Origin: an uncultured Verrucomicrobiaceae bacterium
GTDB taxonomy: Bacteria > Verrucomicrobiota > Verrucomicrobiia > Verrucomicrobiales > Verrucomicrobiaceae
Length of the DNA: 64,000 nt
Reading direction: 5' to 3'
Assembly: GCA_964538625.1 (NCBI GenBank)
Contig: CAZIGH010000026.1
Coordinates: 4,902 to 68,901, forward strand
This document shows, in pieces, positions 25,774 to 54,972 of this stretch; the first letter of the stretch is position 1, and the number at the start of each line of letters is the position of its first letter. The notes beneath the pieces were generated by a model. The model had not been told where the DNA came from and did not search any database. It saw only the letters and a list, made by a program, of their open reading frames with translations. The position numbers were made by a program, and so were the translations under genes.

Positions 25774-28563
25774 CTATTTCCACACTTTACCCTTGGGATC
25801 ACCGCTGACCTCGAACCAGGCGAGGAGGTCCAGGATTTGCTCTCGTTTCAAGGCGTTGAGCAATCCTGCGGGCATGGGTGAGATGTCGCTGATGGTGCGC
25901 TCCTGTATCATGGATTTGCCGATCTCAATGACGTCTGGTGCAAGTGGGTTGGGCTTTAATACAACGCGCTCGTCATCTTCGGAGTCGAGCAGGCCGGTGA
26001 AGGTCTGGCCGTCTTTGCGTTTGATGGTGGTGTAGCGGAACTTTTCATCGATAACCAGGGAAGGTTCCAAGATGTGCAGCAGGAGATCGCGTGTGCTGAA
26101 GCGGCTGCGCACCTGCACCAGCTCGGGGCCAAAGAGTCCTGCTGGCAGCGCTGGGTCGTTGCTGACTTTGTGGCAGAAGAAACACTGGGCGGTGACCATG
26201 GCGGACTTGGCCGTTTCGAAACTGCGGCCTGACAGGACTTGCGGAAGATGTGGCTCCAGGTCGGCCAGTTTCCATTGCTTGAAGCTGTGTCCTGGCAGCG
26301 CGGTGGGCAGGAGTGGGGTGGGCTTGAGCGGATGCACCACATCTGCGAGCGCACGGGCTTCATCTGGCTTCAGGGCGGCTGCGAGTTCGCTGCGGGTGTC
26401 GCTGATAATCTTGAAGTAGGTGGATGCGCCGTTGAGCTTTTCTGCGCGGTTCAGTGCATCAAACACGATGCGCCTCTGCTCGACAGTCCAGCCCTCTTTG
26501 AGATAACGCAGGATGAAGGGATAATACACGAGATCTTCGGATGTGGTGAGCGCGGCGAGGTGCCGGGTGGCCTGCTTGATGATGACGGGAGACTTCAGGT
26601 GGACGAGGAACTTGCACAGCTCCCGGCTGAATCGCGCATCACGGGCGGGAAAGAGGATGCCTAAGGTATTGACCAGGGCATCCGCCTGCATGGGCGTCAC
26701 GGCGTGACCGCGGGCGATGGCGATTTCCATGATGCGGAGCGCGGCGAGTTTCATGTCCACGGCATCCTCTTCCAGGAGCATCATCGCTGCCTGAAAGGCG
26801 ACACTGCGATCTGCGGCGGAGCCTGCGCGCACGGCGGCAAGCATGGCGTTGATGGCATCCCATCCTCCCTTACCGGAAAAGGCTCTACTTTCCTCCATGA
26901 CCATGCGTTTGCGCTGCAGGGCAAACCTGTCCGGCGTTGCTTGCCTGGCGCGGGGTGGCTTGGGCGCGTCTGGCTGCGGTGCTCCGATGTAGCTGATGCG
27001 GTAGAGTCCGCTCTGGGTGCCGCGCCCGCCCGTGGTGAACCAGAGTGCTCCGTCTGGGCCTATGGCTCCGTCAGTGAGATTGAGCGGGCGGCCAGTGGCA
27101 AAGGTTTCTTGCCTGCCAGTGTAGCTCTCGCCCGTCTTCTGGAGATGCACGGCGATCAACCTCCCGTACGACCAGTCGCAGATGAAGAGTGCGTCTTGAT
27201 AGGCTTTCGGGAAGGCTGCGCCGTAGCCGAAGAAGGTGGCGGTGGGTGAGGATAGGCCTATGTCCACCACGCTGGGCAGTGTGTCCACATACCAGTCTGG
27301 CCATCGACTGGTGCCGCGCCGCCATCCATAGTCAGCACCGGGCACGATGTGGAGCACGCGAGTGGGCATGTAGAAGTGGGTGCCTACGTCACGTTCCATG
27401 TCGGCGTCGAAAGTGAACAGGGCACCGTCTTGATGGAAGGCGATGTCCAGCGGGTTGCGCAGGCCGCCGGCAATGACTTGAACCTCGCTGCCATCAGGCG
27501 TGACGCGGAGTACGTGGCCGGCGGGCAGGATGACGTCTCCGTCGAACATGCTGGCATCCCATGGGTTGGGGATGAGTTGATCATCCGCATAGTGCTTGAG
27601 CGGAGAGTCTGGGGAGACGTTGGCAGGCAGATGCACATTGTTCCCATGCGCTACGTAGATGGCTCCGTCTGGCCCGAGCTTGATGTGGTTCCGCCCGTGC
27701 CCCACGCCGCCTTCAGTTCTGAGCAGCTCTTTCTTGGTCTCATAAGTGCCGTCCTTGTCAGTGTCATCAAGGCGGAAGAGGGCTTTTGTGTTGTTGGCGT
27801 TGGCAAAGAGCGAGCCGTGGGCATAAAGTAGTCCGCGACACTCCAAGAGGGAGTCTTCGATGACTTCCATTTTTTGTTCACCGCTGGCGCTGATGCTCAG
27901 TCTGAGGAGACCTTTCTTTTCCATGGCAAGCGTGATGCGCCCGCTCTCATCAAAGGCCATGGCGACCCAAGAGCCTTCCTGCGGCAGTGCCGAGCGCACG
28001 AGTTCTACCTTGAATCCCGAGGGTACGGTGATACTCGCCGCATCGGTGGCCTGGGTTTGTGCGCCGGGTTTTGCGAGCTGCCAGGAGTTGTAGGCGTCGA
28101 AGGTCTGCTTGAAATCAAAGGGCTGATCTGGCGCATCGAGATCGATGGCGCTGGCGGACTTTGCGCCGGACCATGAGGCATCGCTGACGATCCAGGATTT
28201 GCGGTTGAGGTCGCCATTGAGTTCGAGCAGGGCGGCGGCCCTGGTGCCGCCGGAGATGCGGAGCACATTCACACCGCTGCGGATGTGTTTGGTGACATCC
28301 AGTGACTGGGCGCGTTCTGAGCCATCAGCGTTGCTGACATGGTGGCCATTGAGATGAATGGTAGCACCTGAGTCGGCAGCTACAAAGAGTATGGCCATAA
28401 GCAGGGGGCCGGTGTGCTCGAAGCGCTGCTCCAGGTGCCCTGTGTGGTCATAGATGAGCCATGACGGAGAGGGTGGCCGGTTGGCGAGCTGCGCTCCGGC
28501 GAAAATAGGGAGCAGAAGGAGAACAGCGGCTGCCAGCCGGAGGTGGGTTGTGTGTGACGTCAT
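25774..28563 (-). CDS. PVC-type heme-binding CxxCH protein (membrane-bound dehydrogenase-like beta-propeller + HEAT-like repeats + cytochrome c domain)
   Basis: Heme c motif CFFCH (26171-26185). Signal peptide MTSHTTHLRLAAAVLLLLPIFAGA (start ATG 28563). Central GRNHI..GPDG / GLRNP..DIAF sorbosone-dehydrogenase-like blades. Confidence 0.75.
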   Translation of the reverse strand: MTSHTTHLRLAAAVLLLLPIFAGAQLANRPPSPSWLIYDHTGHLEQRFEHTGPLLMAILFVAADSGATIHLNGHHVSNADGSERAQSLDVTKHIRSGVNVLRISGGTRAAALLELNGDLNRKSWIVSDASWSGAKSASAIDLDAPDQPFDFKQTFDAYNSWQLAKPGAQTQATDAASITVPSGFKVELVRSALPQEGSWVAMAFDESGRITLAMEKKGLLRLSISASGEQKMEVIEDSLLECRGLLYAHGSLFANANNTKALFRLDDTDKDGTYETKKELLRTEGGVGHGRNHIKLGPDGAIYVAHGNNVHLPANVSPDSPLKHYADDQLIPNPWDASMFDGDVILPAGHVLRVTPDGSEVQVIAGGLRNPLDIAFHQDGALFTFDADMERDVGTHFYMPTRVLHIVPGADYGWRRGTSRWPDWYVDTLPSVVDIGLSSPTATFFGYGAAFPKAYQDALFICDWSYGRLIAVHLQKTGESYTGRQETFATGRPLNLTDGAIGPDGALWFTTGGRGTQSGLYRISYIGAPQPDAPKPPRARQATPDRFALQRKRMVMEESRAFSGKGGWDAINAMLAAVRAGSAADRSVAFQAAMMLLEEDAVDMKLAALRIMEIAIARGHAVTPMQADALVNTLGILFPARDARFSRELCKFLVHLKSPVIIKQATRHLAALTTSEDLVYYPFILRYLKEGWTVEQRRIVFDALNRAEKLNGASTYFKIISDTRSELAAALKPDEARALADVVHPLKPTPLLPTALPGHSFKQWKLADLEPHLPQVLSGRSFETAKSAMVTAQCFFCHKVSNDPALPAGLFGPELVQVRSRFSTRDLLLHILEPSLVIDEKFRYTTIKRKDGQTFTGLLDSEDDERVVLKPNPLAPDVIEIGKSMIQERTISDISPMPAGLLNALKREQILDLLAWFEVSGDPKGKVWK

Positions 28564-28694
28564 GGCGGAGAGAAAGGCTTGCTGAAGATACTGCCGGGCA
28601 GGAGGACTGTCTTTCACTGCGTTGGCGTGCCGCTGGTGGACGGGCGTGCTGAGGCTTGCACGGCTGGCTGTTGTCGCCAGCATGTTTGGGCATT

Positions 28695-30374
28695 ATGTGT
28701 ACGTCATCTTCCTCCCCACCTTCCGCGCTGGACGCTGCGGTGCTGAACCTGGTCCAGGAGGAGGTGCTGCAAACGCCTCCGGGATTCCACACGGAATCCG
28801 ATCTCTTCGCGGCGGGGCTGGACTCCATGGCCATCATGCAGATGCTTTTGCTCCTGGAGGAGCGGTTTGGGGTGAGTCTGCCAGTGGAAACCGTGTCACG
28901 GGAAAACTTTCACTCTGCGGCCAGTATCGCCAAGCTGCTGGAGGCTCGCGGGGTCAGGGTTGAGAGGGCACCCGAAGCAGCGGTACAGGCTGCGTTGTCT
29001 GTGCAGGGTGCCGAAGCGGCGAGGGAAATGCCAGCGGCGTTCGATCGGTTGCCGCTGCGGGATTGTGATTTCTTTGTGGTGGCGTTTGACCAGATGCTAA
29101 GAAGCTCTGGCCAGGTGGGTCACATAGCGCACTCGCTTCTGGAGCTGGAACGGGTGCCAGATGTGGCTGCCCTCAAGAGGCTGGTGGAAGAGCTGCCGAC
29201 GCGCTTTCCCATCTTCAACGCTAGGCTGAAACGGCGCTGGGGTGTGGGCTTTCCAGAGTGGGTGCCAGCGGTTAGGACGAGACCGCTGGACTTTTCCTTG
29301 TGGTCGCATGAGGCGAGCAAGGGGGAGACGCTCAAACATGGTGCCACCGTGTTTGCGGATGAGCAGCGGCTGCTGGAGGACATCATCAATGCACCGCTGG
29401 AGCGCGATGATGAAGCCTGGGCCAATGCGCGTTTTGATTTGATAGAAAAGCCGGACGGCAGTTGTGTCTTTGTCTATTCCTGGAGTCACCTGATTACGGA
29501 CGGAGTGGGAGCGGAGCATTTTCTGGTGGAGATGGCGCGGCTAGTGGGTGCAGACTATGCTCCGGTGCCACCGTTTGAGAAAGACGCTGGTGAGGAGCGC
29601 GGATGGGGTGTGCGCTGGAAGAGTGCCGCTCCGATGGTGATGAAGTTTTACAAGCTGCTGGAACGTCCATTTGACTCACTGGCCCCCAAAGATGCGCACC
29701 CGTCACGCACCCAGTTCCGCGTGGTGAGGCTGAATGAAAAACAGACGGCGGAAGCGGCGCGGCGTGCGGCTGCGGCATCAGGACCGCTGCTGAATATGCC
29801 CTTTCACTTGGCGTGTGCCATGCGTGCGCACCGGCGCATCTTCCAACTGCGCGGTGAGACCAGCGAGTCATTGCTGTGTGCGGTGCCGGTGCAGGTGCGG
29901 AGGAAGGGGGCGCGTGGCCCGTTGTTTCAAAACAACCTAACCATGTTCTTCGCCTCGCTGGGCATGGATGAAATGGGGACCGTGGAGCAGGCGGCCTCCA
30001 GTCTGACGGAGCAGCATGCCGCCTTTCTGAAGGACCGGCTCGGTGATGCATTCCGTGACTTGATGTGGCTGATGAGACCCATGCCACCGGGCCTGCATAT
30101 GAAGTTCATTCAGTGGCAGATGAAGGGTCAGTTCTGTTCGTTCTATCACTCACACACGGGTGTCTTCGCGCCTGAGCTGGAACACTTTGCGGGGGCCAGG
30201 GTGACGAGTGCCTACCACATTCCTGGCTTCTCTAGCCCGCCCGGGACTGGGGTCTTTGCCAATGAGAAGAATGGCCGCCTCATTCTCACCTTTGCCTGGC
30301 GTGAAGGCGTGCTAAGCAGGGACGAGCAGGAAGCCATGGTGGAGCAAGTGCTCACGGACCTGGGAGCGGTCTGA
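28695..30374 (+). CDS. Carrier protein (ACP/PCP) fused to a condensation/WS-DGAT-like HxxxDG acyltransferase domain
   Basis: N-terminal carrier motif DLFAAGLDSMAIMQMLLLLEERFGV, with the Ser codon at 28824-28826. Catalytic-type motif WSHLITDGVG (HxxxDG, 29487-29504). The start is ATG 28695 or TTG 28656. Confidence 0.7.
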   Translation: MCTSSSSPPSALDAAVLNLVQEEVLQTPPGFHTESDLFAAGLDSMAIMQMLLLLEERFGVSLPVETVSRENFHSAASIAKLLEARGVRVERAPEAAVQAALSVQGAEAAREMPAAFDRLPLRDCDFFVVAFDQMLRSSGQVGHIAHSLLELERVPDVAALKRLVEELPTRFPIFNARLKRRWGVGFPEWVPAVRTRPLDFSLWSHEASKGETLKHGATVFADEQRLLEDIINAPLERDDEAWANARFDLIEKPDGSCVFVYSWSHLITDGVGAEHFLVEMARLVGADYAPVPPFEKDAGEERGWGVRWKSAAPMVMKFYKLLERPFDSLAPKDAHPSRTQFRVVRLNEKQTAEAARRAAAASGPLLNMPFHLACAMRAHRRIFQLRGETSESLLCAVPVQVRRKGARGPLFQNNLTMFFASLGMDEMGTVEQAASSLTEQHAAFLKDRLGDAFRDLMWLMRPMPPGLHMKFIQWQMKGQFCSFYHSHTGVFAPELEHFAGARVTSAYHIPGFSSPPGTGVFANEKNGRLILTFAWREGVLSRDEQEAMVEQVLTDLGAV

Positions 30375-30430
30375 GGGTGGACACTAACGGTGCGGCGTGT
30401 TATACCGCGCGGCCTTGCCTTTTCGATCTC

Positions 30431-31858
30431 ATGCTGAACATCGTTGATGAAATTTTCCGCCACTCTGATGCAGCCGCGCCAGCGCTTATAGCCGGTGAGC
30501 GGCGGGTGAGTTACGGCGAGCTCAAGGCGCTCATGGAGGAGGCAGCGACCAGCCTTGGTGACCGCAGCGGCCAGCGTGTGGGGCTGCTGTGTCCGAACGG
30601 GGTGCATCACATCGTTTGGTCGCTGGCCGTGCTTCGCAGTGGGGGTGTGCTGGTGCCGGTGGCGGGAGAGTTGAGCCTGCCTGAGCGTGAGAACGTGGTG
30701 AAGACTACCGCGCTCCATGCCGTGCTGACCGCCGGTGGCAAAGAGTGGCACGATGCCGCACTGCGGGGCAAGAGGCTGCCTTTATCCGATTTGCCGGCGG
30801 TGTTGCATGAGATGTCTCCACCTGAGGTCGTTGAGTTTGAGGAAGCGAGATTGAGGTCGGTCAACCCGGCTTTGATTCGCTTCAGCAGCGGCACTACAGG
30901 AAAGCGAAAGGGCGTGGTGCTCTCCCATGAGACGTTGCTGGCCCGGGTGAAGGCTTGCAATGAAGGTTTACGGATTGGGCCTGGAGACCGCGTCATCTGG
31001 ACGCTGCCCATGGCGCATCACTTTGCGGTCTCCATCGTGCTGTATCTGCTGCATGGGGCCACCACGGTGCTGGAGGACTCCCATCTGGCGGCGGACGTGT
31101 ACCGGGCGCTGACCTCGCACGGCGGCACCGTGTTGTATGGATCTCCGTTCCACTACGCTTTGCTTGCGGGTTATGAGCCCGGTGCGCCTTGTGCCTCGCT
31201 GAGGCTGGCGGTCTCGACGGCTGCCGCATTGCCGAAGGCTGTGGCGGAGAAGTTTCAAGCCCGTTACCAGCTTCCACTGACACAGGGTATGGGCATCATC
31301 GAAGTGGGGCTGCCGCTCCTGAACCTGGAGCACGCGGCGGACAAGCCGGAGTCCGTCGGTGGCTGCCAGCCTGCGTTTGAGGCACGCATCGTCAACGAAA
31401 GCGAAGGCTCAGGAGAGTTGCAGATTCGTGGACCGGGCATTTTTGATGCGTATCTCTGCCCCTGGACGCCGCGAGATGAAGTGCTGAACGAGGGCTGGTT
31501 TGCAACGGGTGACTTGGCGCGGCGCGATGAGGATGGTTCTCTTTATCTCGTGGGCAGGCTGCACAGTGTCATCAACGTGGGTGGCATGAAGTGCTTCCCC
31601 GAGGAGATAGAAGAAGTGATCTGCCGTCATGCGGGAGTGGCTGAGGCGCGGGTGCTGGCCATGCCACACGCCTCCTTTGGTTCCGTGCCGGTGGCTGAGA
31701 TCGTGCCCAAGGATGCCGCAGCGCCACCGCGCGGCATGGAGCTGACTGCACTCTGCCGACAGGAGCTCTCCAGCTATAAGGTGCCCATGCGCTTCACCAT
31801 GGTGACCTCCATTCCAAAAACCCCGAGTGGAAAAATCCTCCGACAGGCTCAGGTTTGA
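30431..31858 (+). CDS. Stand-alone adenylate-forming enzyme (AMP-dependent synthetase/ligase; acyl/aryl-carrier-protein ligase candidate)
   Basis: IRFSSGTTGKRKGVVLSH (30884-30913), WFATGDLARRDEDGSLYLVGR, PKTPSGKILR. The start is placed at ATG 30431; the tracked ORF begins at GTG 30377. Confidence 0.85.
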   Translation: MLNIVDEIFRHSDAAAPALIAGERRVSYGELKALMEEAATSLGDRSGQRVGLLCPNGVHHIVWSLAVLRSGGVLVPVAGELSLPERENVVKTTALHAVLTAGGKEWHDAALRGKRLPLSDLPAVLHEMSPPEVVEFEEARLRSVNPALIRFSSGTTGKRKGVVLSHETLLARVKACNEGLRIGPGDRVIWTLPMAHHFAVSIVLYLLHGATTVLEDSHLAADVYRALTSHGGTVLYGSPFHYALLAGYEPGAPCASLRLAVSTAAALPKAVAEKFQARYQLPLTQGMGIIEVGLPLLNLEHAADKPESVGGCQPAFEARIVNESEGSGELQIRGPGIFDAYLCPWTPRDEVLNEGWFATGDLARRDEDGSLYLVGRLHSVINVGGMKCFPEEIEEVICRHAGVAEARVLAMPHASFGSVPVAEIVPKDAAAPPRGMELTALCRQELSSYKVPMRFTMVTSIPKTPSGKILRQAQV

Positions 31859-31861
31859 ACG

Positions 31862-33148
31862 ATGAACCCTGCAAGCCGTTCCCCCAAACGAATCGCCATC
31901 ATCGGAGCCGGTCCCGCCGGAGCCACGGTGGCCTGCCTACTCGCCCGGGCTGGAAGGGATGTGGTGATGCTGGACAATGGGAAACGCCCCGAACTCGTAG
32001 TGGGCGAGTCACTGGTGCCGCTGCTGGTGAACGTGTTTCGGCGCATGGGCATAGAGGAGCAAGTGGCAGCTCTGGGTGTTTACAAGCCCGGGGTGACCTG
32101 GGTGATCGATGAGCATGATGCACTGGAACTGGCTTTCGAAGCGATGCGCGGCGTGCTGCCCACCTACGCCTACAACGTACCGCGCCGCGAGTTCGATGAC
32201 TTGGTGCATGACACTGCACTGCAAGCCGGTGCGAGACACATCCCCTGTGAGGTCCACCTGGAGAAGCGAGAAGTCGAACGCGGTGGAGAAGTGATACCGG
32301 TTCTGGCCGAGGAGACGCTGAGGCTGATTCCGGAGTGGAATGGCGAGCAGCCGGACCTGCTCATAGACGCCAGCGGACGGAGGAGAATGTTTGCGAAGCT
32401 GCTGCACCTGGGCGCTGACGTAGGGCGGCGGAAGGATGTGTCGCACTTCGCTCACTTCGAGGGTTGTGAGATGCCCCGGCCCGCCGGTCAAACGGTGATC
32501 ACGCGTCTGAAGCATGGGTGGTCCTGGCGCATTCCGCTGCCCGGACGTCTCTCCGTGGGAGTGGTGATGAACAAGGATGACGCCAAGCGCTATGGCAACA
32601 CGCCTGAAGAGCAGCTGGATGGGGTCATGGATGGGAACCCGGTTCTGGCCGCTGCATGCCGTCAGCGCCGCCGCGTTTCGTCCGTGGCCACGTATGCCAA
32701 CTACCAGCTGATCTCACACCGTGGCTGCGGGGCCAACTGGGTAGCCGTGGGTGATGCTTTTGGGTTTGTGGACCCCATGTTGTCTCCTGGGCTGTGCATG
32801 GCTATGACTTCTGCGGAAAAGCTGGCGGACACCATTCTGGAGGGCGGACGTCTGCGGGAGGGCTTTGAGCGCTACCTGAGTTGGTTCCGCCTCCAGCTTG
32901 CAGCGTGGCAGGAGCTGATCGACTTCTTTTATGACGGCCGCATGTTTGCCATGTTCAAAACCGGCAACGAGATGAACATGAAGTATCCAGGGAAAATCAG
33001 CACGCTCATGCAGCGCCACATCGAGAAGAACCTGGCCGGCATGGCGGGGGGTGAATACACGGCCAGGACGTATTCCAGAAACCTGCTGCGTTTCATGGGC
33101 AGTTACGGCATCCGCGGCTATGAGCCTGCGGATTATGCCATCGTCTGA
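31862..33148 (+). CDS. Flavin-dependent halogenase (PltA/CndH-like short form)
   Basis: IAIIGAGPAGATVA (GxGxxG). GESLVP...GVYKPGVTW with the Lys codon at 32084-32086. GWSWRIPL = WxWxIP (32519-32536). FVDPMLSPG = FxxPxxSxG (32765-32791). At ~428 aa there is no Trp-binding C-terminal module. Confidence 0.75.
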   Translation: MNPASRSPKRIAIIGAGPAGATVACLLARAGRDVVMLDNGKRPELVVGESLVPLLVNVFRRMGIEEQVAALGVYKPGVTWVIDEHDALELAFEAMRGVLPTYAYNVPRREFDDLVHDTALQAGARHIPCEVHLEKREVERGGEVIPVLAEETLRLIPEWNGEQPDLLIDASGRRRMFAKLLHLGADVGRRKDVSHFAHFEGCEMPRPAGQTVITRLKHGWSWRIPLPGRLSVGVVMNKDDAKRYGNTPEEQLDGVMDGNPVLAAACRQRRRVSSVATYANYQLISHRGCGANWVAVGDAFGFVDPMLSPGLCMAMTSAEKLADTILEGGRLREGFERYLSWFRLQLAAWQELIDFFYDGRMFAMFKTGNEMNMKYPGKISTLMQRHIEKNLAGMAGGEYTARTYSRNLLRFMGSYGIRGYEPADYAIV

Positions 33149-34014
33149 CAGACCTCTGCATTCCGAAGCACCTCAGCGGCGCGGATGCCAGAGGCGCGTC
33201 CTGCCTCGATGAGGCTGGGGCGCTGCTTGTTCGGAAAGGGTCTTGGGTGCGGGGTCTGGGTGACGATGTCGATGATGCGTTTGCCGCTGCGTTTCGCCTC
33301 TACCAGGCGGAGCTGAAAGATGGTCTCCGAGATGATCTGGTGGCTGATGGCAAAGCCGGTGGACAGGGTGGGCCACTTGGTGACCAGCTCCGTGCCGCGT
33401 TCATGTTCGATACGGTGCAGGATGATGGTGTGAATGCGGTCATCCTCAAGCCAGTGGCTGAAGGGCACAGCCATGGCCACGCCACCGTCACACCAGCGCT
33501 CACCATGGATGACTTGGTTGCAAAACAACCCCGGTATGGCGCTGCTGGCTACCGCGAATGCGACGGCATCTCCCGCATCAACGATCTCACAGTCCCGCCG
33601 TGTGAGATTGGCTACGGCAAACTGGACCTGCGGAGCACGAAAGCTCTCCAGGCGCGGACTGCCGAGATGCGAACGCAAGTACTTCACCGCATTGCTGCCC
33701 GAGAGAATGCCAGAGGAATACATGCAGGTGGCCACGCCTGGAAAACGAAGCGGAGCAAGCCAGTCCCAGAAGCAGGTGCGCATGCCCGGCTGCATGACGA
33801 AGTCCACCAGCGCATCACCCCGGATACCAGAGCCGCAAAGCAGAGCGGTAAGCGCGCCGGACGAGGTGCCGGCGATCTGGGTCGGCAGCACACCAGCCTT
33901 GTGAAGTTCTGCCATAAATCCGGAATGAGCGTAGAAACCGAAAAAGGCGGAGCTGAGCGCCACGGCCACACCTTCGCCAGATGAGGAGCCGTTCACGGGA
34001 GGAGATGAGATCAT
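33133..34014 (-). CDS. Patatin-like phospholipase with degenerate glycine-rich motif
   Basis: GTSSG (GxSxG) and CDGGV (DGG) catalytic dyad motifs. The usual GGGxRG oxyanion loop reads SSAFFGFYAHSG. The start is at ATG 34014; the longer ORF start at 34116 would overlap the aldolase gene. The 3' end overlaps the halogenase 3' end by 16 nt. Confidence 0.7.
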   Translation of the reverse strand: MISSPPVNGSSSGEGVAVALSSAFFGFYAHSGFMAELHKAGVLPTQIAGTSSGALTALLCGSGIRGDALVDFVMQPGMRTCFWDWLAPLRFPGVATCMYSSGILSGSNAVKYLRSHLGSPRLESFRAPQVQFAVANLTRRDCEIVDAGDAVAFAVASSAIPGLFCNQVIHGERWCDGGVAMAVPFSHWLEDDRIHTIILHRIEHERGTELVTKWPTLSTGFAISHQIISETIFQLRLVEAKRSGKRIIDIVTQTPHPRPFPNKQRPSLIEAGRASGIRAAEVLRNAEVCQTMA

Positions 34015-34078
34015 GAAAGGGATTTGAGAACAGGTGTCTGCGGCGCACGTCGAGTGCAAGCCAGTTCTCCGGGAGGCA

Positions 34079-34801
34079 TCACTCTCGCGCCGCCGCGAGA
34101 AGACGTTGGTATCCATTTCGCAGCAGCCCCACGTCAGAGTCCAGTGCGAGCCAGTTGAATCCCAACGCCCTCAAGTGCGCATGGTCCGCCATATCCCGCA
34201 CGAGGATGCCCGCAGCCTTGTGATGATCTTTCGCCGCTTTCACCACGCGTTTCAGGCACTCCTCATAGGTGCGGGCGGAGTGGTGCACTTTGAGGTCAAA
34301 GGTGAGATCCGCCGGCCCCACGAAGAGGGCGTGAATGCCACTGACTGCGGCGATTTCATCTGCGTGCTCTACAGCCTCAAGGGTTTCGATCTGCGCGATG
34401 ACGACGGGCGGAGCCGTTTTTTCATCCGGCGGCTTGAGACCGTAAGCGTAAGCCGGAACCGTTCGCGAGTAACCTCGGCGGCCCAGTGGCGGGTAGTTGG
34501 CGGCGCGGACGCACTGAAAGGCGTCTTGCACTGAGTTTACATGCGGCACCATGATGCCGTGTGCTCCCCAGTCGAGCACACGACCTATGACATCCTGGTT
34601 CGGCGCGCCCACCCTGACGATGGCGCGTGTGCGTGTGCTGCGCAGGGCGCGCATTTGTCCCGGCAGCGCCGCTTCTGGTTCGCACCCGTGCTCCAGGTCT
34701 AGCAGCACCCAGTCAAATCCACACATGGCCGCCAGCTCGGCCACTGCGGGTGATCCAAACGACAGCCATGTACCCAGCAGCTCCTCGGAAGCATTCATCA
34801 T
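34079..34801 (-). CDS. HpcH/HpaI family aldolase (2-keto-3-deoxy-acid aldolase-like)
   Basis: GFDWVLLDLEHG, RVGAPNQDVIGRVLDWGAHGIMVPHV, YPPLGRRGY, VIAQIETLEAV, LFVGPADL. Confidence 0.85.
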   Translation of the reverse strand: MMNASEELLGTWLSFGSPAVAELAAMCGFDWVLLDLEHGCEPEAALPGQMRALRSTRTRAIVRVGAPNQDVIGRVLDWGAHGIMVPHVNSVQDAFQCVRAANYPPLGRRGYSRTVPAYAYGLKPPDEKTAPPVVIAQIETLEAVEHADEIAAVSGIHALFVGPADLTFDLKVHHSARTYEECLKRVVKAAKDHHKAAGILVRDMADHAHLRALGFNWLALDSDVGLLRNGYQRLLAAARE

Positions 34802-35066
34802 GAGCTGATGTCAGCATTTTGATGGAGGCCTTGCAAGGCTTTGTCGATGCGGGCGTGGGTGAACTTTCGCAAATCCTGACCGCTGGAGCCGCTGCCGATG
34901 AGGAAGAAGCCATCATCCCGCTCGAAGTAGCCCGCACCTACGCGGATGACGGCTTTGACGAGCATGTTGCGCAGGAGATGCAGCCAGAAACGGCGACGGT
35001 GCTCGGGCGGCAGCGGGCGGATGCTTTGGTAACCTTCAAGCGCCAGCTTCAAGAACCGTGCATCGT
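34601..35066. repeat. Tandem duplication, copy 1 (466 bp)
   Basis: Base-for-base identical to 35067..35532 by my comparison. The junction is ambiguous by 1 nt (T at 34600/35066/35532). Confidence 0.95.
34798..35066 (-). pseudogene. Orphan 3' fragment (~88 codons + stop) of the APH-fold kinase gene, created by the duplication
   Basis: Encodes ...DDARFLKLALEGYQSIRPLPPEHRRRFWLHLLRNMLVKAVIRVGAGYFERDDGFFLIGSGSSGQDLRKFTHARIDKALQGLHQNADISS, identical to the C-terminus of 35264..36337. Confidence 0.85.
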
Positions 35067-35267
35067 CGGCGCGCCCACCCTGACGATGGCGCGTGTGCGT
35101 GTGCTGCGCAGGGCGCGCATTTGTCCCGGCAGCGCCGCTTCTGGTTCGCACCCGTGCTCCAGGTCTAGCAGCACCCAGTCAAATCCACACATGGCCGCCA
35201 GCTCGGCCACTGCGGGTGATCCAAACGACAGCCATGTACCCAGCAGCTCCTCGGAAGCATTCATCAT
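35049..35267 (-). pseudogene. 5' fragment of the HpcH aldolase gene (67 native codons + 5 junction codons, TMHGS, then stop)
   Basis: MMNASEELLG...RAIVRVGAP is identical to aldolase residues 1-67. It keeps the native ATGA overlap with the kinase stop (35264-35267). Confidence 0.85.
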
Positions 35268-35532
35268 GAGCTGATGTCAGCATTTTGATGGAGGCCTTGC
35301 AAGGCTTTGTCGATGCGGGCGTGGGTGAACTTTCGCAAATCCTGACCGCTGGAGCCGCTGCCGATGAGGAAGAAGCCATCATCCCGCTCGAAGTAGCCCG
35401 CACCTACGCGGATGACGGCTTTGACGAGCATGTTGCGCAGGAGATGCAGCCAGAAACGGCGACGGTGCTCGGGCGGCAGCGGGCGGATGCTTTGGTAACC
35501 TTCAAGCGCCAGCTTCAAGAACCGTGCATCGT
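35067..35532. repeat. Tandem duplication, copy 2 (466 bp)
   Basis: Identical to 34601..35066. The ORF track shows identical 74-aa ORFs at 34713..34937 and 35179..35403, offset by 466. Confidence 0.95.
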
Positions 35533-46002: not shown

Positions 46003-47985
46003 CTACTGCCCGGCACGAGCAAGACTGGCCAGCACCTCTTCTGCCACCCGTGCTGCGGTGATGCCCGTCATGCACTCGTAATGGCCAAATGGGCATTCTC
46101 GTTTGAAGCAGGGACTGCATGGCACGTGGTGACGCACAATGCGGTGATGCGCTCCCAGCGGCCCGGTCAGGATGGGTTCCGTGGAGCCGAAGATGGACAC
46201 CGTGGGCACACCCAGTGCTGCGGCCAGGTGCATGGTGCCTGTGTCATTGGTCACCAGGAGCGCGCAGCGTCGCAGTGCGGTGATGAGTTCCATCATGGAA
46301 GTCTTTCCCACGCGGTTTTGATGTGGCGCTGCCACCATGGCCGAGAGAGCCTGCCCCATGGCTGCCTCTCCCGGTGCGCCGAAGAACTGCCACTCGATGT
46401 CGCCACGCTGCTCCGACACAAGTGAGATGGTTTCTGCGTAGCGCTCCAGCGGCCACCGCTTCGCCGGACCATATTCCGCACCGGCGCAGATGCCGACATG
46501 GAGAGGAGAGGTGGTGATGTCTCTCACCGCATCACCGCCAAAGACCGCCTCCGCCTCCGTGTCCGCTCCACAATGCGCGGCCATGCGCAGGCCCTTCAGC
46601 GCTTGGTGCTCCGGGGGGCTACCAGGCTTCGGCTCCGGCGTGATCTGCCCCAGAAAATACGACCTCAGCGAGCCCTTGAAACCCACGAGTCGTTCGATGT
46701 CCGCCAGGGCAAACTCCAGCGTGGAACGTGTGGAGTTGGTGAAGAACAGCCCTGCATCATAGCGCCGCCCAGTGCCAGTGATCCTCCGCGCCGCAGTCAG
46801 TAGGCCGTCCTTTGGTTCCTTGCAGATCACCTCATCGATGAAGCCAAGTGAGCGCCAGAGTTCCGCCAGTTTGGCCGGGGTGAAGACGGTGAGCCTCAAG
46901 TCCGGCCTGCTGCCGCGCAGCGCACGCACGGCAGGGAAAGCCATGCACGCGTCCCCCAGCCAGTTGGGCGAGCGCAGAATGACTTCAAACGGCTGCAACC
47001 GGGTGCGATCGTAACCTGTCGGCCACACGATGCCGCGTTTGTAGCGGGAGAGGAGAAAGTCCGGCCTCGGCGTCTTCCAGCGGTTGTGCACCCAGAACCA
47101 GTTCTCCGGCGCCTCGCGGATGATCTGTTCCACCCGCAGATTCAGTGCCGCCGTGATGCCTTCTGCACTTGCCTTCTCCTCACCTGAAACGACCGGCGGA
47201 TGAATGACCATCTTCCACCGAGCCAGCCCCGCATCCTGCACGGAGATGGGCAGCAGCGGCGTCCGGCAGCGGATGGCCATGAGCGCGGGGAGGGGTGTGG
47301 TGGAAGCCAGCCTGTCGAAGAACGGACACCATACGCCGCCGTCGCCCGCGTGTTGATCCACCAGCACACCTAGAGCGCCGCAGTTCTCCCGCAGGTGCTT
47401 GAGCGGCCCCATGAAGCCGTCCTTCCGGTCAAACAACGTGTAGCCCAACTGCTCGCGACGGCGGCGCACATGCTCGTTGAGAAAGGGATTTGACAGCGCC
47501 TGGTAGATGCTGGCCGGCTTCATGCCTGCGGGCACAAACAGGCTCGGCACCTGCGTCAGCAGTTCCCAGCAGCTGAGGTGACACACCGCGTAAAGCACAG
47601 GGCGGCCAGACTCCGCCACTTTCTCCGAGTGCTCCAGCCCGCTCACGGACACTCGTTTCACGATGTCCGCCTCTCGCATCATGGGAAGTTTCAGGCCGCA
47701 AAGGAAGTTCCCCCCCATCGACATGAAGTGTGCCCGCACGAGCCACCTCTGCGAGCTGGGGCTCAGCTCCCGCCCAAAGGCGATGCGCACATTCCGCGCT
47801 GCCAGTTTTCGATACGGCACCGCTACAAGCCAGATGACCAGACCTAGACCCCTACCGAGCAAGGCCACCAAAGGCAGCGGAACCATGCTCAGCACAGACT
47901 CCACCGCGCGGAAGAGCGCATACACCAGCCACTGGCCGACGCGCCCCGCTTGTGCGGACCACCCCGGTCGAGTCTTTGCTGCCAT
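46003..47985 (-). CDS. Fusion protein: LpxL/HtrB-type lipid A acyltransferase (N) + glycosyltransferase family 9 heptosyltransferase (C)
   Basis: N-terminal half has CHLSCWELL (HxxxxE motif). C-terminal half has RSPNWLGDACMAFPAVRAL...VTNDTGTMHLAAALGVPTVSIFG. It is a single uninterrupted 660-codon ORF. Confidence 0.75.
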   Translation of the reverse strand: MAAKTRPGWSAQAGRVGQWLVYALFRAVESVLSMVPLPLVALLGRGLGLVIWLVAVPYRKLAARNVRIAFGRELSPSSQRWLVRAHFMSMGGNFLCGLKLPMMREADIVKRVSVSGLEHSEKVAESGRPVLYAVCHLSCWELLTQVPSLFVPAGMKPASIYQALSNPFLNEHVRRRREQLGYTLFDRKDGFMGPLKHLRENCGALGVLVDQHAGDGGVWCPFFDRLASTTPLPALMAIRCRTPLLPISVQDAGLARWKMVIHPPVVSGEEKASAEGITAALNLRVEQIIREAPENWFWVHNRWKTPRPDFLLSRYKRGIVWPTGYDRTRLQPFEVILRSPNWLGDACMAFPAVRALRGSRPDLRLTVFTPAKLAELWRSLGFIDEVICKEPKDGLLTAARRITGTGRRYDAGLFFTNSTRSTLEFALADIERLVGFKGSLRSYFLGQITPEPKPGSPPEHQALKGLRMAAHCGADTEAEAVFGGDAVRDITTSPLHVGICAGAEYGPAKRWPLERYAETISLVSEQRGDIEWQFFGAPGEAAMGQALSAMVAAPHQNRVGKTSMMELITALRRCALLVTNDTGTMHLAAALGVPTVSIFGSTEPILTGPLGAHHRIVRHHVPCSPCFKRECPFGHYECMTGITAARVAEEVLASLARAGQ

Positions 47986-52045: not shown

Positions 52046-52792
52046 CTATGGCAGCGAGATTGCGGGGACGGGCGGGGAGGCAGGATCTTCGTCCGGGAAA
52101 CGCACGATGATGGCGGAGATGCGCTCTTTGCTCCACTGGTTTTCCTTTAACAACCAGGTGCGGACAAACTCAGCCACGGCTTTGCGTGAGCCTTCTCGCA
52201 CCTGATTGATACGGTGTGGCGTGTCAGCACGCTTTTCGAGGGTGGGGGTGAGACTTTTCTCAAGATCCGCCAGGTGTTCTTTGGCGTTGAAGCGCAGCCA
52301 GCCCGACTCGGACTTCCTCTCCATTCCGTCGGTGCGGATGGCGGGCGGCAGGCTGGGGCGAATGGCGGGCGCGAGCACGGTGCACACGCCATTCTCTACA
52401 CTGAGCTTCCACTCGTCGGTGAGCCGCAGGTGGTAGCGATAGACGGTGGGCACCTTGATTTCCGACACGGTGGTGCCGAGGTAGAGCAAGTTCCCCAGGG
52501 CGGACTTCATGTCGTAGGAGGTGATGGTCTCTGTCATCTCCAGCGTAGCGAGTTCCAGGATGTTTCCCTGGGTGGGGGTGACTTTGATGAACTCCTCTCG
52601 GAAGGTTTGGGTGATATGCTGGTTGAGAAACTTCGAGGGCAATGAGCTGAACGCATCCAGCGCCTTCCACCCCAGGATGGCGGCTATGATCAATGCGGCG
52701 AGGAGGGTGAGCGCCAAGGTGGCCCAGCAGCCAGGCCCTCGACGGCGAGGCTCTGGAGCGGCAGTGGCAGGCGCTGGAGTTTCCTGACTCAT
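52046..52792 (-). CDS. DUF4230-like membrane-anchored protein
   Basis: N-terminal TM WATLALTLLAALIIAAILGW, then ...KVPTVYRYHLRLTDEWKL.... The start at ATG 52792 overlaps the upstream stop (ATGA). The family name is from recollection. Confidence 0.55.
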   Translation of the reverse strand: MSQETPAPATAAPEPRRRGPGCWATLALTLLAALIIAAILGWKALDAFSSLPSKFLNQHITQTFREEFIKVTPTQGNILELATLEMTETITSYDMKSALGNLLYLGTTVSEIKVPTVYRYHLRLTDEWKLSVENGVCTVLAPAIRPSLPPAIRTDGMERKSESGWLRFNAKEHLADLEKSLTPTLEKRADTPHRINQVREGSRKAVAEFVRTWLLKENQWSKERISAIIVRFPDEDPASPPVPAISLP

Positions 52793-54972
52793 CCGGCGGC
52801 GGCTTTGGCTATGGCTTCGCAGGCTTTGATGTCGAGTTTGCCTGAGGCGAGTACGGGGATGTCTGGCACGCGCACCATACGCTTGGGTATCCACAGTGCG
52901 GGCACGCCGTGCTCAAGTAGGCGATGACGCAGGGCTACGATCTCCGTGTTTTCAGGTCCGCCAGGAAGGGTGGTCAGCAGCACGAGGGCTTCGCCACGCT
53001 CGGGGTCAGGGATGCCCACGATGGTGAGTCGGCGGGTGGACTCGCCTTCCAGTCCCAGCGCGCGGTTCATCGCTTCTTCCACGGTTTCATGCGGTACCAT
53101 TTCGCCTGCGATTTTGGAGAAGCGTGAAATGCGCCCTTCGATGTAAAGGAAGCCGTCCAGATCGACGCGGCCCACATCACCTGTTCGGAACCAGCCCTCT
53201 GCGTCGAGCACTTCCGCAGAGCGTTTGGGATCGTTCAGGTAACCGGTGAAAACATTTCCGCCTTTGAACCAAATGATGCCGGATTCATGTAGCGACACGG
53301 GTTCGCCCGTGTCCGGATGGGTGAGCCTGATAGCCATGCCCGGCATGGTCTGACCCACGGAGCCGGGACGGTGGGAGAGTGCAACGGCCTGGGCGCTTTC
53401 ATCCGCCGCCTGTGGATCTGGCAGGTTGACGTTGGAGACGGGGCTCGTCTCGGTAAGGCCGTAGCCTTCCAGCACTTTCTTGCCGAACTTGGTTTCGAAG
53501 GCTTCCGCTACGGACCTGGGAAGTTTCTCTGCGCCGGTGACGACGAGCTTCAGCGGAGCGAGCTGCTCCCGGTTCACGCCGCGCATGTAACCGCGCAAGA
53601 AGGTAGGCGTGGCGATGAGCACGGTCACGCGATGCTTCTGGATGATGCCGGCGAGTTCCTTTGTCTCAAGCGGTGAGGGATACGAGGCAAGGTTGAGGCC
53701 GTAAATGAGTGGGTACCATAACGTGACCGTGCAGCCAAAACTGTGGAACTGTGGCAGGCAGGCCAAGATGCTGTCCTCATGCCCCATGTCCAGCCTGGAG
53801 CCGAACTGCGAGACGTTGGACATGAGGTTGCGATGCGTGAGGACGACCCCTTTTGGTTCGCCGGAGGAGCCACTGGTGAAGAGCAGCGTGGCCTCGGTGT
53901 GACCGCCCTTCTTTGATATGCCCAAGATGGAGGCCAGAAGCGGAGCGGGCAGGATTTTCGAAAGGATGAACCACAGAGTGGCCTTGCCCTTCAGCGAGGG
54001 CATGAGCCGCTCCAGCATGATGAGCTGTTTCTGCGCTGGCCAGGGGAAGCCCTGCATCTTGCGCACAAACTGGTCCACGGTGAGAAAGCGGTCGATGTCC
54101 GCCTGGCGGATGGCGCTCTCAATGGAGGCGCGTCCAGCGGTGAAGTTGAGATTCACTGGCACCTTACCGGCCAGAACGACGGCGACGTTCGCGATAAGGC
54201 AGATGGGTGAGGGGGGCAGTACGATGCCGACGCGCTTCTTTTGCGTCTCCTGGCGGATGTAACGGCTGAGCGCCAGGGCGGCGGCGAAGACTTTGTTGAA
54301 GGGCAGTGCGCTGCCATCCTTGCCGTCGATGATGCTGTTGATGGAGCCAAACTTTTTCAGCCCCTGAATCAACGCATAGCCCAGGCTACGCTCCAGCGCC
54401 GGACTCTGCGCGAAGGTCTGCTCGGCAAGCCGGAACAAGGCCTCCTGGAAGGCTGGCAAGGTGCAGTCCGCTCCACTGAGCGGCGGCTCGAGGCCTATGA
54501 TGACCTCTTCCTCAGATGGAGTGCGCTCGATCGGCATCGCCGTCTCGCGCGGGTGGAACACGTAAGCGGGCACCACTGGAACGCCGGCCTTGAGGAGAAA
54601 GTCCAGCTTGAGACCGGGGATGACGGTGAGCGGTGCCGAGATGGCGGCAGCTTCCGAGGGCAGATAGATGACCACGCTACCGCCGGCGACAACGCCCTGA
54701 ATGGCTGACGCAAATGCATCCGCCGCAGTACTTGCGCCAATGACCAGCGTGCGAGTGCCGTCGCGCTCGATGTGGGCGCGGGTGGCATCTGACAGCACGG
54801 CATCTTCATCCACGAGATAGTGAAGCTCCCGGCCTTCGAGGAGCCTCTCGAACACGGGCAGATCAGAAGGCTTGAGCAGGCTCGGGATGAGGAGGAAGCC
54901 CGACTCGTCAGGCAGGTTCTCTTTGCCTAGGATGAGGGCGCCGGGAAGGTTCGTGGTGGTGGGTTTGGACAT
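52789..54972 (-). CDS. AMP-dependent synthetase/ligase with ~230-aa N-terminal extension (Aas/acyl-ACP-synthetase-like)
   Basis: LLFTSGSSGEPKGVVLTHRNL, YGLTETSP, WFRTGDVGRVDLDGFLYIEGR, SGKLD. The N-terminal region lacks an HxxxxD acyltransferase motif. Confidence 0.8.
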   Translation of the reverse strand: MSKPTTTNLPGALILGKENLPDESGFLLIPSLLKPSDLPVFERLLEGRELHYLVDEDAVLSDATRAHIERDGTRTLVIGASTAADAFASAIQGVVAGGSVVIYLPSEAAAISAPLTVIPGLKLDFLLKAGVPVVPAYVFHPRETAMPIERTPSEEEVIIGLEPPLSGADCTLPAFQEALFRLAEQTFAQSPALERSLGYALIQGLKKFGSINSIIDGKDGSALPFNKVFAAALALSRYIRQETQKKRVGIVLPPSPICLIANVAVVLAGKVPVNLNFTAGRASIESAIRQADIDRFLTVDQFVRKMQGFPWPAQKQLIMLERLMPSLKGKATLWFILSKILPAPLLASILGISKKGGHTEATLLFTSGSSGEPKGVVLTHRNLMSNVSQFGSRLDMGHEDSILACLPQFHSFGCTVTLWYPLIYGLNLASYPSPLETKELAGIIQKHRVTVLIATPTFLRGYMRGVNREQLAPLKLVVTGAEKLPRSVAEAFETKFGKKVLEGYGLTETSPVSNVNLPDPQAADESAQAVALSHRPGSVGQTMPGMAIRLTHPDTGEPVSLHESGIIWFKGGNVFTGYLNDPKRSAEVLDAEGWFRTGDVGRVDLDGFLYIEGRISRFSKIAGEMVPHETVEEAMNRALGLEGESTRRLTIVGIPDPERGEALVLLTTLPGGPENTEIVALRHRLLEHGVPALWIPKRMVRVPDIPVLASGKLDIKACEAIAKAAAG

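Follow-up and report, generated by a model that had tools for sequence, protein, structure and literature searches.

In the C-1027 pathway of Streptomyces globisporus, the branch formed by SgcC1, C2, C3, C and C5 combines a stand-alone adenylation (A) enzyme with a carrier, a short flavin halogenase that acts on the carrier-bound substrate, a flavin hydroxylase and, for off-loading, a condensation (C) enzyme that is free-standing and esterifies a free hydroxyl. Here we describe a cassette of three genes in a 64-kb stretch of DNA from a Verrucomicrobiaceae genome, which we refer to as the window; on established knowledge of the SgcC branch, the cassette shows the same logic and enzyme classes. 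Gene 1 encodes a carrier domain fused to a C-terminal condensation-fold domain of ~450 amino acids (aa), which we name X. The product of gene 2 is an acid-type adenylate-forming ligase that stands alone, and that of gene 3 is a flavin-dependent halogenase of the short form (Table 1). We read the cassette as a carrier-dependent module that would load, halogenate and then transfer an acid, with a lipid as the probable acceptor, and give this reading, in which every catalytic step is a predicted one, a probability of roughly 55%. By analogy, a mechanism that mirrors SgcC1/C2/C3/C5 is plausible. The SgcC branch acts on a beta-amino acid through an amino-acid A domain, whereas gene 2 carries the LPMAHHFA sequence of an acid-type ligase. 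In the cassette the carrier and C domain are fused, X is too diverged for the Pfam Condensation profile, the context is one of envelope lipids and aryl polyenes (APE) rather than of an enediyne, and the host is a Gram-negative Verrucomicrobium. The further flavoenzyme of the SgcC branch is paralleled only in the cassette's relatives, by a PF12831 oxidoreductase. An earlier note on this DNA knew of no described product of this architecture in Verrucomicrobia. The literature searched held nothing specific on a role for this module, for the larger unit described below, or on its architecture in Verrucomicrobia, but the SgcC1/C2/C3/C5 precedent makes the cassette less unprecedented than the note implied. 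Off-loading after carrier-dependent halogenation is known logic, and the fused, acid-type form seen here is a new variation on it.

Loading and transfer are combined in a similar way in VibE/VibB/VibH and in the mycobacterial system of FadD, polyketide synthase (PKS)-acyl carrier protein (ACP), PapA5 and MmpL, where an acid-AMP ligase loads a carrier and a stand-alone HHxxxDG enzyme of the C fold acylates an amine (VibH) or a diol lipid (PapA5). In the mycobacterial system an MMPL transporter exports the product. Clusters of Chthoniobacterales related to the cassette share the MMPL gene with this system, whereas the window itself has neither MMPL nor LolA. The VibH and PapA5 systems do not halogenate, and X forms a separate, far-diverged clade, with a weak match to PapA_C in 1 of 37 members. 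The carrier-dependent pyrrole halogenases PltA, Bmp2 and Mpy16, as well as CndH, resemble gene 3 in being short (~410-450 aa) and in carrying the Lys, WxWxIP and FxxPxxSxG signatures, but their identity to gene 3 is 22-25% and they work with a proline A domain and an acyl-CoA-dehydrogenase-type oxidase, where the cassette has an acid-type ligase and its relatives have a PF12831 protein. The halogenases of the chlorosphaerolactylate (cly) pathway are CylC-type dimetal enzymes and are not flavin-dependent. In this pathway, from Sphaerospermopsis, an adenylating enzyme places a fatty acid on an ACP, where it is halogenated in the tethered state, and a depsipeptide-synthetase module that contains a C domain, ClyF, then releases it as an ester (PMC7923214). 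The cassette would share the order of loading, halogenation and esterification with cly and differs from it in halogenase type, phylum and off-loading module.

In genomic ancestry the closest relatives are the aryl-polyene, xanthomonadin and flexirubin-type clusters (E. coli CFT073 ape, Xanthomonas pig, Azoarcus arc), as the whole module has distant homologues that are embedded in genuine APE clusters. The Chthoniobacterales clusters share with the arcuflavin and APE clusters a methyltransferase, a polysaccharide deacetylase, acyltransferases, an exporter, LolA, an AMP-ligase, an ACP and a halogenase. The window lacks the genes that define these clusters. By Pfam, its open reading frames (ORFs) of at least 200 aa include no ketosynthase (KS), nonribosomal peptide synthetase (NRPS) module, phosphopantetheinyl transferase (PPTase) or flavin reductase, as the earlier note had said, and no second carrier or chain-length factor (CLF), ketoreductase (KR) or dehydratase (DH) for polyene extension. 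Lipid-anchoring acyltransferases and MMPL/LolA-type export of the APE kind are likewise absent from the window. Unlike APE clusters, neither the window nor most of the Verrucomicrobial loci hold KS/CLF, KR, DH, a tyrosine ammonia-lyase (TAL) or an ApeH-type loader, and the E. coli CFT073 ape cluster for its part has no X, halogenase or PF12831 FAD oxidoreductase (FADox). We considered and rejected the window as an APE cluster; comparison with the CFT073 cluster gave weak similarities for ACP, MMPL, LolA and ApeJ and no ligase match. Identity between the ACP of gene 1 and ApeE reaches only 29%.

The N-terminal part of gene 1 is a carrier domain that matches Pfam PP-binding (E 3.8e-9). In the AlphaFold2 (AF2) model it is helical, with Ser44 of the (G/D)xDS motif at the N-terminus of the second helix, as in the four-helix bundle of carrier proteins, and the residues G41-L42-D43-S44-M45 are invariant in 37 homologues. 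The AF2 model of the whole protein (37 homologues; predicted local distance difference test (pLDDT) 89, predicted template modelling (pTM) score 0.81) consists of the carrier, a linker and a two-lobed alpha/beta domain. Using Foldseek we matched this model to the NRPS didomains of peptidyl carrier protein and C domain (PCP-C) from LgrA, TycC5-6 and fuscachelin, with both domains covered at E 1e-18 to 4e-21. The model and these matches bear out the carrier fold that had been proposed for the N-terminus.

The assignment of X comes from its fold. Searched alone, X had no meaningful Pfam match at E 10, and the match to Condensation anticipated for the C-terminal part of gene 1 therefore failed to appear even at that threshold. 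A sequence search of gene 1 against the PDB returned carrier proteins only and nothing for X. Among 37 X members there were weak, sub-threshold Pfam matches to Condensation (13/37, best E 0.004) and the BAHD Transferase family (8/37), as well as to PapA_C, Tri3 and AATase. At the level of structure, X reached a Foldseek probability of 1.00 to C, cyclisation (Cy) and epimerisation (E) domains and to Tri3, with a template modelling (TM) score on target of 0.6-0.72, and it has the two-lobed, V-shaped architecture of chloramphenicol acetyltransferase (CAT)-like folds. The HxxxDG domain that the earlier note had seen here is thus of the condensation/CAT fold in the AF2 model. Judged by this modelled fold, X belongs to the condensation superfamily, but it has diverged strongly and lies outside the curated Pfam family PF00668. 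The motif itself reads SHLITDG, the first His of the canonical HHxxxDG being replaced by Ser. H265 and D269 (SWSHLxxDG) are invariant in the 37 homologues of gene 1, and across an alignment of 51 distant X proteins that stand alone, the His, Asp and Gly of the motif never vary. The top Foldseek match of gene 1 was the stand-alone C-family protein AzeD (8s6l; E 2e-23, TM score 0.72 on target, identity 18%), which carries PHxxxDG, likewise without the first His, and belongs to a functionally unexplored clade (bioRxiv 10.64898/2026.07.17.738954). Almost all cluster members of the X family are named 'hypothetical protein' or are unnamed.

Gene 3 is well supported by sequence and model as a flavin-dependent halogenase, especially of the carrier-dependent kind. 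Pfam gave Trp_halogenase (1.4e-27) and FAD_binding_3. The GxGxxG motif (GAGPAG) occupies residues 15-20, with G15, G17 and P18 conserved in 100% and G20 in 99% of 115 orthologues. A conserved Lys follows ~25 residues past the GESL segment, and in phmmer alignments this residue, Lys75, falls on the Lys of FasV (8zop) and Mpy16 (5buk). The ten best PDB matches by phmmer are nine halogenases and an uncharacterised flavoprotein, 3nix; the halogenases matched include FasV (2e-30), Mpy16, Bmp2, ChlB4, PltA, CndH, CmlS and RadH. The halogenases range from 2e-30 to 4e-16, in contrast to hydroxylases at 1e-5 or worse, the hydroxylase QhpG scoring 1.3e-5. In the AF2 model (pLDDT 92) the top 43 Foldseek neighbours are all halogenases save 3nix. 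Gene 3 therefore groups with Bmp2, PltA, Mpy16 and CndH and not with the monooxygenases, as had been suggested from its motifs. The 3nix protein is a structural-genomics flavoprotein from Cytophaga hutchinsonii and may be a halogenase of the gene 3 kind.

Gene 2 matches Pfam AMP-binding (5e-54) and AMP-binding_C (2e-15) in a two-domain architecture, with SSGTTGKRKG (A3 P-loop), TGD (A8 hinge region) and PSGK (A10) at residues 170, 377 and 483. By inspection, its A4 region reads LPMAHHFAVS, without the FDxS Asp of amino-acid A domains. From these motifs gene 2 is an acid-type ANL ligase with the acyl/aryl-acid form of A4. Its best relatives in the PDB are feruloyl-, fatty-acyl-, malonyl-, oxalyl-, o-succinylbenzoyl- and 4-chlorobenzoyl-CoA ligases. 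As gene 3 matches PltA, Bmp2 and Mpy16, we weighed the proline-to-pyrrole logic of PltF/PltL/PltE/PltA and rejected it, since the A4 Asp of amino-acid A domains is missing from gene 2 and the oxidoreductase that goes with the module is a PF12831 protein and not an acyl-CoA dehydrogenase. We also rejected gene 2 as an aryl-acid:ACP ligase of the ApeH/XanA2 type. It had no blastp match to ApeH at E 1e-3, and APE clusters that bear the module hold a separate ApeH/ApeE-type loader. The likeness to the ligase step of xanthomonadin pathways drawn in the earlier note is for this reason a loose one only.

The fused ACP-X protein, of ~560 aa, was detected in 83 cluster representatives, and the named carriers are all Verrucomicrobia (Prosthecobacter, Brevifollis, Phragmitibacter and Chthoniobacterales). 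Scanning the species genomes of GTDB, we obtained 161 stretches encoding ACP-X. For synteny, scored by tblastn, 79 of the 161 were kept, almost all of them labelled Verrucomicrobiota, and the counts for each clade refer to loci with full flanks (individual loci carry the prefix L). In the clade nearest to the window, with X at least 50% identical (Prosthecobacter, Brevifollis), a halogenase was nearby in 3/12 loci and a ligase in none (0/12), which indicates that X can be encoded apart from its proposed loader. In the clade at 40-50% identity, X, ligase and halogenase occur together in 8/11 loci, and the exact three-gene form of the window recurs in L001, L035, L045 and L067. The clade below 40%, of Chthoniobacterales, has the ligase in 16/18 loci, ligase and halogenase in 10/18, and an extra FADox gene between X and the ligase in 16/18. 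The adjacency of the three genes expected in relatives is thus found in the more distant ones and not in the nearest named genera. In Prosthecobacter debontii an orthologue of the halogenase stands alone on another contig (L086, 10001-12357), beside a gene for an MprF-type flippase-like protein with an LPG_synthase_TM domain; an LPG_synthase_TM gene also occurs in the L033 cluster. Two Verrucomicrobial-type modules, L041 and L067, come from metagenome-assembled genomes labelled 'uncultured Enterobacteriaceae bacterium' and 'Akkermansia muciniphila', which are probably binning or labelling errors.

The Chthoniobacterales clusters place the module in a wider setting. Their genes run in the order deacetylase, PlsC, PlsC, patatin, ACP, X, FADox, ligase, halogenase and methyltransferase, and the other strand encodes MMPL, LolA, an LpxL-like acyltransferase and one or two further halogenase-like proteins that retain WxWxIP and FxxPxxSxG. 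Similarity of the module's neighbours to ApeM, ApeL and ApeJ is weak. Within 10 kb either side of most of these clusters there are no KS, CLF, DH, TAL or ApeH-type genes; a FabF-like KS lies within 10 kb in four Verrucomicrobial loci (L037, L083-L085). Chthoniobacter encodes the ACP and X in two genes, which abut or overlap (L059, 9839-10249 and 10249-11616), and they are likewise separate in metagenome loci L093-L172, but fused in Verrucomicrobiaceae. Because they are separate both in Chthoniobacter and in the clade embedded in APE clusters, the protein in the window is a gene fusion, and by this evidence a lineage-specific one.

Outside Verrucomicrobia, an X profile search of 1.84 billion representatives recovered 272 clusters (at 50% identity) below E 1e-30, most of them stand-alone proteins of 430-460 aa. 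Locus L091 has ACP, X, FADox and ligase amid three halogenase-like genes within a true APE cluster, whose KS shares 58% identity with ApeR of E. coli. This cluster has unmistakable counterparts of ApeD, E, F, G, H, J, K, L and M and also encodes an aromatic ammonia-lyase. We scanned metagenomes with eight sequences of this APE-embedded clade, in which X is ~27% identical, and kept 80 of 178 stretches. The ligase and FADox follow X in 39/41 loci with enough downstream sequence, and a halogenase lies divergently upstream of the X module in 28/28, mostly with an amine-oxidase-like flavoprotein. In the 13 loci of at least 20 kb we found MMPL/LolA in 10, TAL in 8, an ApeH/ApeE-type loader in 8 and KS/CLF in 4. 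Gene 2 is 38-46% identical to the module ligase of this clade, and is an orthologue of that ligase and not of the ApeH-type enzyme; gene 3 is 40-42% identical to the clade's module-adjacent halogenases. The linkage of carrier, X, ligase and halogenase across clades at ~27% identity is the strongest evidence of joint function. The cassette does not stand by itself, as its relatives hold the module within lipid-anchoring and export clusters or within true aryl-polyene clusters. Since the module-bearing APE clusters hold their own ApeH/ApeE-type loader, the module is an APE add-on distinct from the loading of the polyene starter. One large branch of the aryl-polyene/flexirubin-type clusters constantly carries, as an insert, the sub-module of ACP, X, FADox, ligase and halogenase and, by sequence comparison, the cassette in the window is a minimal, fused, PKS-free derivative of this widespread sub-module. 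Inside APE clusters of loci L093-L172 (e.g. L102, L161, L167) we observed a conserved six-gene unit in which an amine-oxidase-like flavoprotein and a halogenase are divergent from ACP, X, PF12831 and ligase; these clusters also carry a tyrosine/histidine ammonia-lyase.

We propose the following sequence of reactions. Gene 2 would adenylate a carboxylic acid and load it as a thioester on the phosphopantetheinyl arm of gene 1. Flavin-dependent halogenases require an activated carbon, and an unmodified saturated fatty acyl chain is no substrate for them. This requirement, together with the methyltransferase and multiple halogenases of the relatives, makes a plain fatty acid less likely than an acid that is phenolic or otherwise electron-rich, and the substrate would most likely be electron-rich aromatic, phenolic or enolisable. 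Gene 3 would then chlorinate or brominate the tethered substrate, as its family, motifs and synteny suggest, using FADH2 from a reductase encoded elsewhere. In a last step the His of the SHxxxDG motif in X may move the acyl group from its own carrier to the hydroxyl or amine of a free acceptor. In NRPSs of the order carrier-C (T-C), the C domain takes its donor substrate from the carrier that precedes it. This order, together with the lack of a second carrier in the window, implies that the acceptor should be a free nucleophile. The acceptor would be a lipid or lysolipid and the product a halogenated acyl- or aryl-lipid of the cell envelope. We propose a lipid because the neighbours in relatives are PlsC, LpxL-like, patatin, deacetylase, methyltransferase, MMPL/LolA, LPG_synthase_TM and CDP-alcohol phosphatidyltransferase proteins. 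Published roles of the Ape accessory genes are lipid anchoring and outer-membrane export (PMC8253772), and the arcuflavin cluster, of the xanthomonadin type, lists the same accessory classes (PMC3949708).

Several observations weigh against this reading. Prosthecobacter and Brevifollis keep X without an adjacent ligase. AzeD, the best structural match of X, is a non-condensing dehydratase of the C family and, like X, has no first His in its motif. The solved relatives of gene 2 span aryl, dicarboxylic and fatty acids, the window has no PPTase or flavin reductase, and the MMPL, LolA and PlsC proteins of Verrucomicrobia have weak or undetectable similarity to the E. coli Ape proteins. There are also loci without a halogenase. 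In L088, ACP, X and ligase stand alone beside the dcw cluster, and in L089 (2529-12271) an ACP-X fusion, FADox and ligase share the locus with genes for B12-binding radical-SAM proteins and CDP-alcohol phosphatidyltransferases, two of each, a context that hints at an unusual phospholipid. Halogenation would on this evidence be an add-on and not the core of the module. These two loci also fit a reading in which the carrier-X protein and ligase serve general acylation of membrane lipids with an ordinary fatty acid, the halogenase being unrelated or acting on another substrate. X kept alone in Prosthecobacter and Brevifollis would agree with this, as would the best NCBIfam match of gene 2, a long-chain fatty-acid-CoA ligase profile. 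We consider it very unlikely, given that a halogenase is adjacent in two very divergent clades, that the 3-nt gaps or overlaps suggest co-translation and that a saturated fatty acyl chain is unsuited to the enzyme.

The occurrence of distant module homologues within true APE clusters with KS/CLF, KR, DH and TAL raises the question of whether genes 1-3 are instead the starter branch of an aryl-polyene/xanthomonadin pathway whose KS, reductase and dehydratase lie elsewhere in the genome, the tethered, halogenated aryl acid being passed to a type II PKS and not to a lipid. The KS genes near L037 and L083-L085 and the dispersal of pathway genes in Prosthecobacter are consistent with this. It is nevertheless unlikely, since an ApeH-type ligase and ApeE-type ACP are already present in 8/13 of the longer module-bearing loci, gene 2 does not match ApeH, most Chthoniobacterales clusters are free of KS, CLF, DH, TAL and ApeH in their surroundings and a C fold downstream of a carrier points to transfer and not to KS priming. 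Quite unlikely, too, is a role for X in tailoring, that is in dehydration, epimerisation or cyclisation of the tethered or free substrate in the manner of AzeD, with release left to another enzyme such as a patatin-like hydrolase. AzeD is the top Foldseek match and shares the missing His, and the patatin hydrolase is a recurrent neighbour, but the identity to AzeD is low, the PCP-C didomains score nearly as high and cover the carrier too, the weak Pfam matches point to families that transfer acyl groups (Condensation, BAHD Transferase, PapA_C, Tri3, AATase) and the catalytic His and Asp are strictly conserved. It is highly improbable that gene 3 is a flavin monooxygenase, such as a hydroxylase like QhpG, or a reductase, so that the product would be hydroxylated and not halogenated. 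QhpG is the top NCBIfam profile at 108 bits, and the geranylgeranyl-reductase superfamily (86) is level with CmlS (87), all far below their cut-offs, but the PDB matches and structural neighbours described above are halogenases almost throughout, and the Lys, WxWxIP and FxxPxxSxG are kept.

Beyond the load-halogenate-transfer reading, we tentatively raise a broader possibility. X, for which Pfam has no model, may be an unrecognised clade of the condensation superfamily that joins a flavin-tailored and halogenated, carrier-bound acid to a lipid or resorcinol-type anchor, and so provides the missing attachment step in a large branch of APE/flexirubin-type pathways. Verrucomicrobiota might then have retained the module but not the polyene synthase, and use it across the phylum for halogenated aryl- or acyl-lipids of the outer membrane. 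The sub-module spans 178 metagenome and 161 Verrucomicrobiota species-level stretches, and its Verrucomicrobial form, fused, PKS-free and of three or four genes, offers a practical entry point to the function of the module in vitro. If the product is a halogenated envelope lipid, it would represent a class of lipids not reported before from Verrucomicrobia, a group abundant in both soil and freshwater. The cassette would also provide a carrier-dependent halogenase with a substrate other than an amino acid and a new off-loading enzyme of the C type for biocatalysis.

Table 1. Coordinates of the cassette and associated features in the window
Feature	Position	Strand	Basis or remark
Gene 1, carrier-X fusion	28695..30374	+	Alternative start 28656; ATG 28695 fits homologue N-termini
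Carrier domain	~residues 10-85 of gene 1	+	PP-binding; AF2 helices 11-24, 44-58, 75-84
GLDSM Ser codon, predicted phosphopantetheine attachment site	28824..28826	+	Translation
Disordered linker	~residues 94-107 of gene 1	+	AF2 model
HLITDG, HxxxDG motif of X domain	29487..29504	+	Translation
Gene 2, stand-alone adenylate-forming ligase, acid type	30431..31858	+	Alternative GTG start 30377
Gene 3, short flavin-dependent halogenase, 428 aa	31862..33148	+	3 nt after gene 2 stop
Lys75 in GVYKPG, candidate chloramine/hypohalite-guiding Lys	32084..32086	+	100% in 115 orthologues
WSWRIP (WxWxIP)	32519..32536	+	W220, I224, P225 100%, W222 99% in 115 orthologues
FVDPMLSPG (FxxPxxSxG)	32765..32791	+	F302, D304-G310 100%, V303 97% in 115 orthologues
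Patatin-like phospholipase	33133..34116	-	Pfam Patatin 3.7e-20; convergent, 16-nt overlap with 3' end of gene 3

The layout of the cassette agrees with the earlier note throughout. The ORF coordinates give exactly the three co-directional genes and the gaps of 2 or 56 nt and of 3 nt that it had listed, translation places all the motifs it had read in genes 1 and 3 at the same positions and recovers SSGTTGKRKG, TGD and PSGKILR in gene 2, and the Pfam matches it had predicted to PP-binding, AMP-binding and Trp_halogenase were all obtained. With the start of gene 1 at ATG 28695, its N-terminus aligns with those of 36 homologues. Homologues of gene 2 begin 'MLNI...' ('MLNIVDEIF'), which corresponds to ATG 30431 as the likely true start, and the gap between genes 1 and 2 is for this reason more likely 56 nt than 2 nt. 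The G+C content is uniform over the region (0.60-0.61) and thus gives no sign of recent import of the cassette. A scan of 28300-34300 found no promoter-like sites, and terminator-like sites there were not above shuffled expectation, so that the operon boundaries rest on gene spacing only. Upstream, a 969-aa ORF runs on the opposite strand (25774-28683, -). About 40 codons in, it has an internal Met with a signal-peptide-like segment, 'MTSHTTHLRLAAAVLLLL...', and translation probably starts there. With this start the divergent intergenic region before gene 1 would be ~130 nt and not 11 nt.

The patatin-like gene that converges on gene 3 is probably part of the system as a functional partner, since a patatin homologue lies directly upstream of ACP/X in 10/18 Chthoniobacterales loci with full flanks and also in L092. 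Its product could supply or process a lipid, possibly generating a lyso-acceptor. Products of neighbouring genes include a prolyl-tRNA synthetase (ProRS), a two-component system, a sulfatase, an HpcH-type aldolase and kinases of the Ser/Thr and APH types. A second AMP-binding protein of 727 aa (52789-54972, -) is 30% identical to gene 2 over the core and has an N-terminal extension of ~200 aa without a Pfam match. One ORF at 46003-47985 (-) joins LpxL-type lipid A acyltransferase and GT9 heptosyltransferase domains. A perfect 300-nt direct repeat occupies 34600-34899 and 35066-35365, at a spacing of 466 nt, and duplicates part of two genes, that for the HpcH-type aldolase (34079-34801, -) at its 5' end and that for the APH-type kinase at its 3' end; the repeat reflects a tandem duplication of very recent date or else an artefact of assembly.

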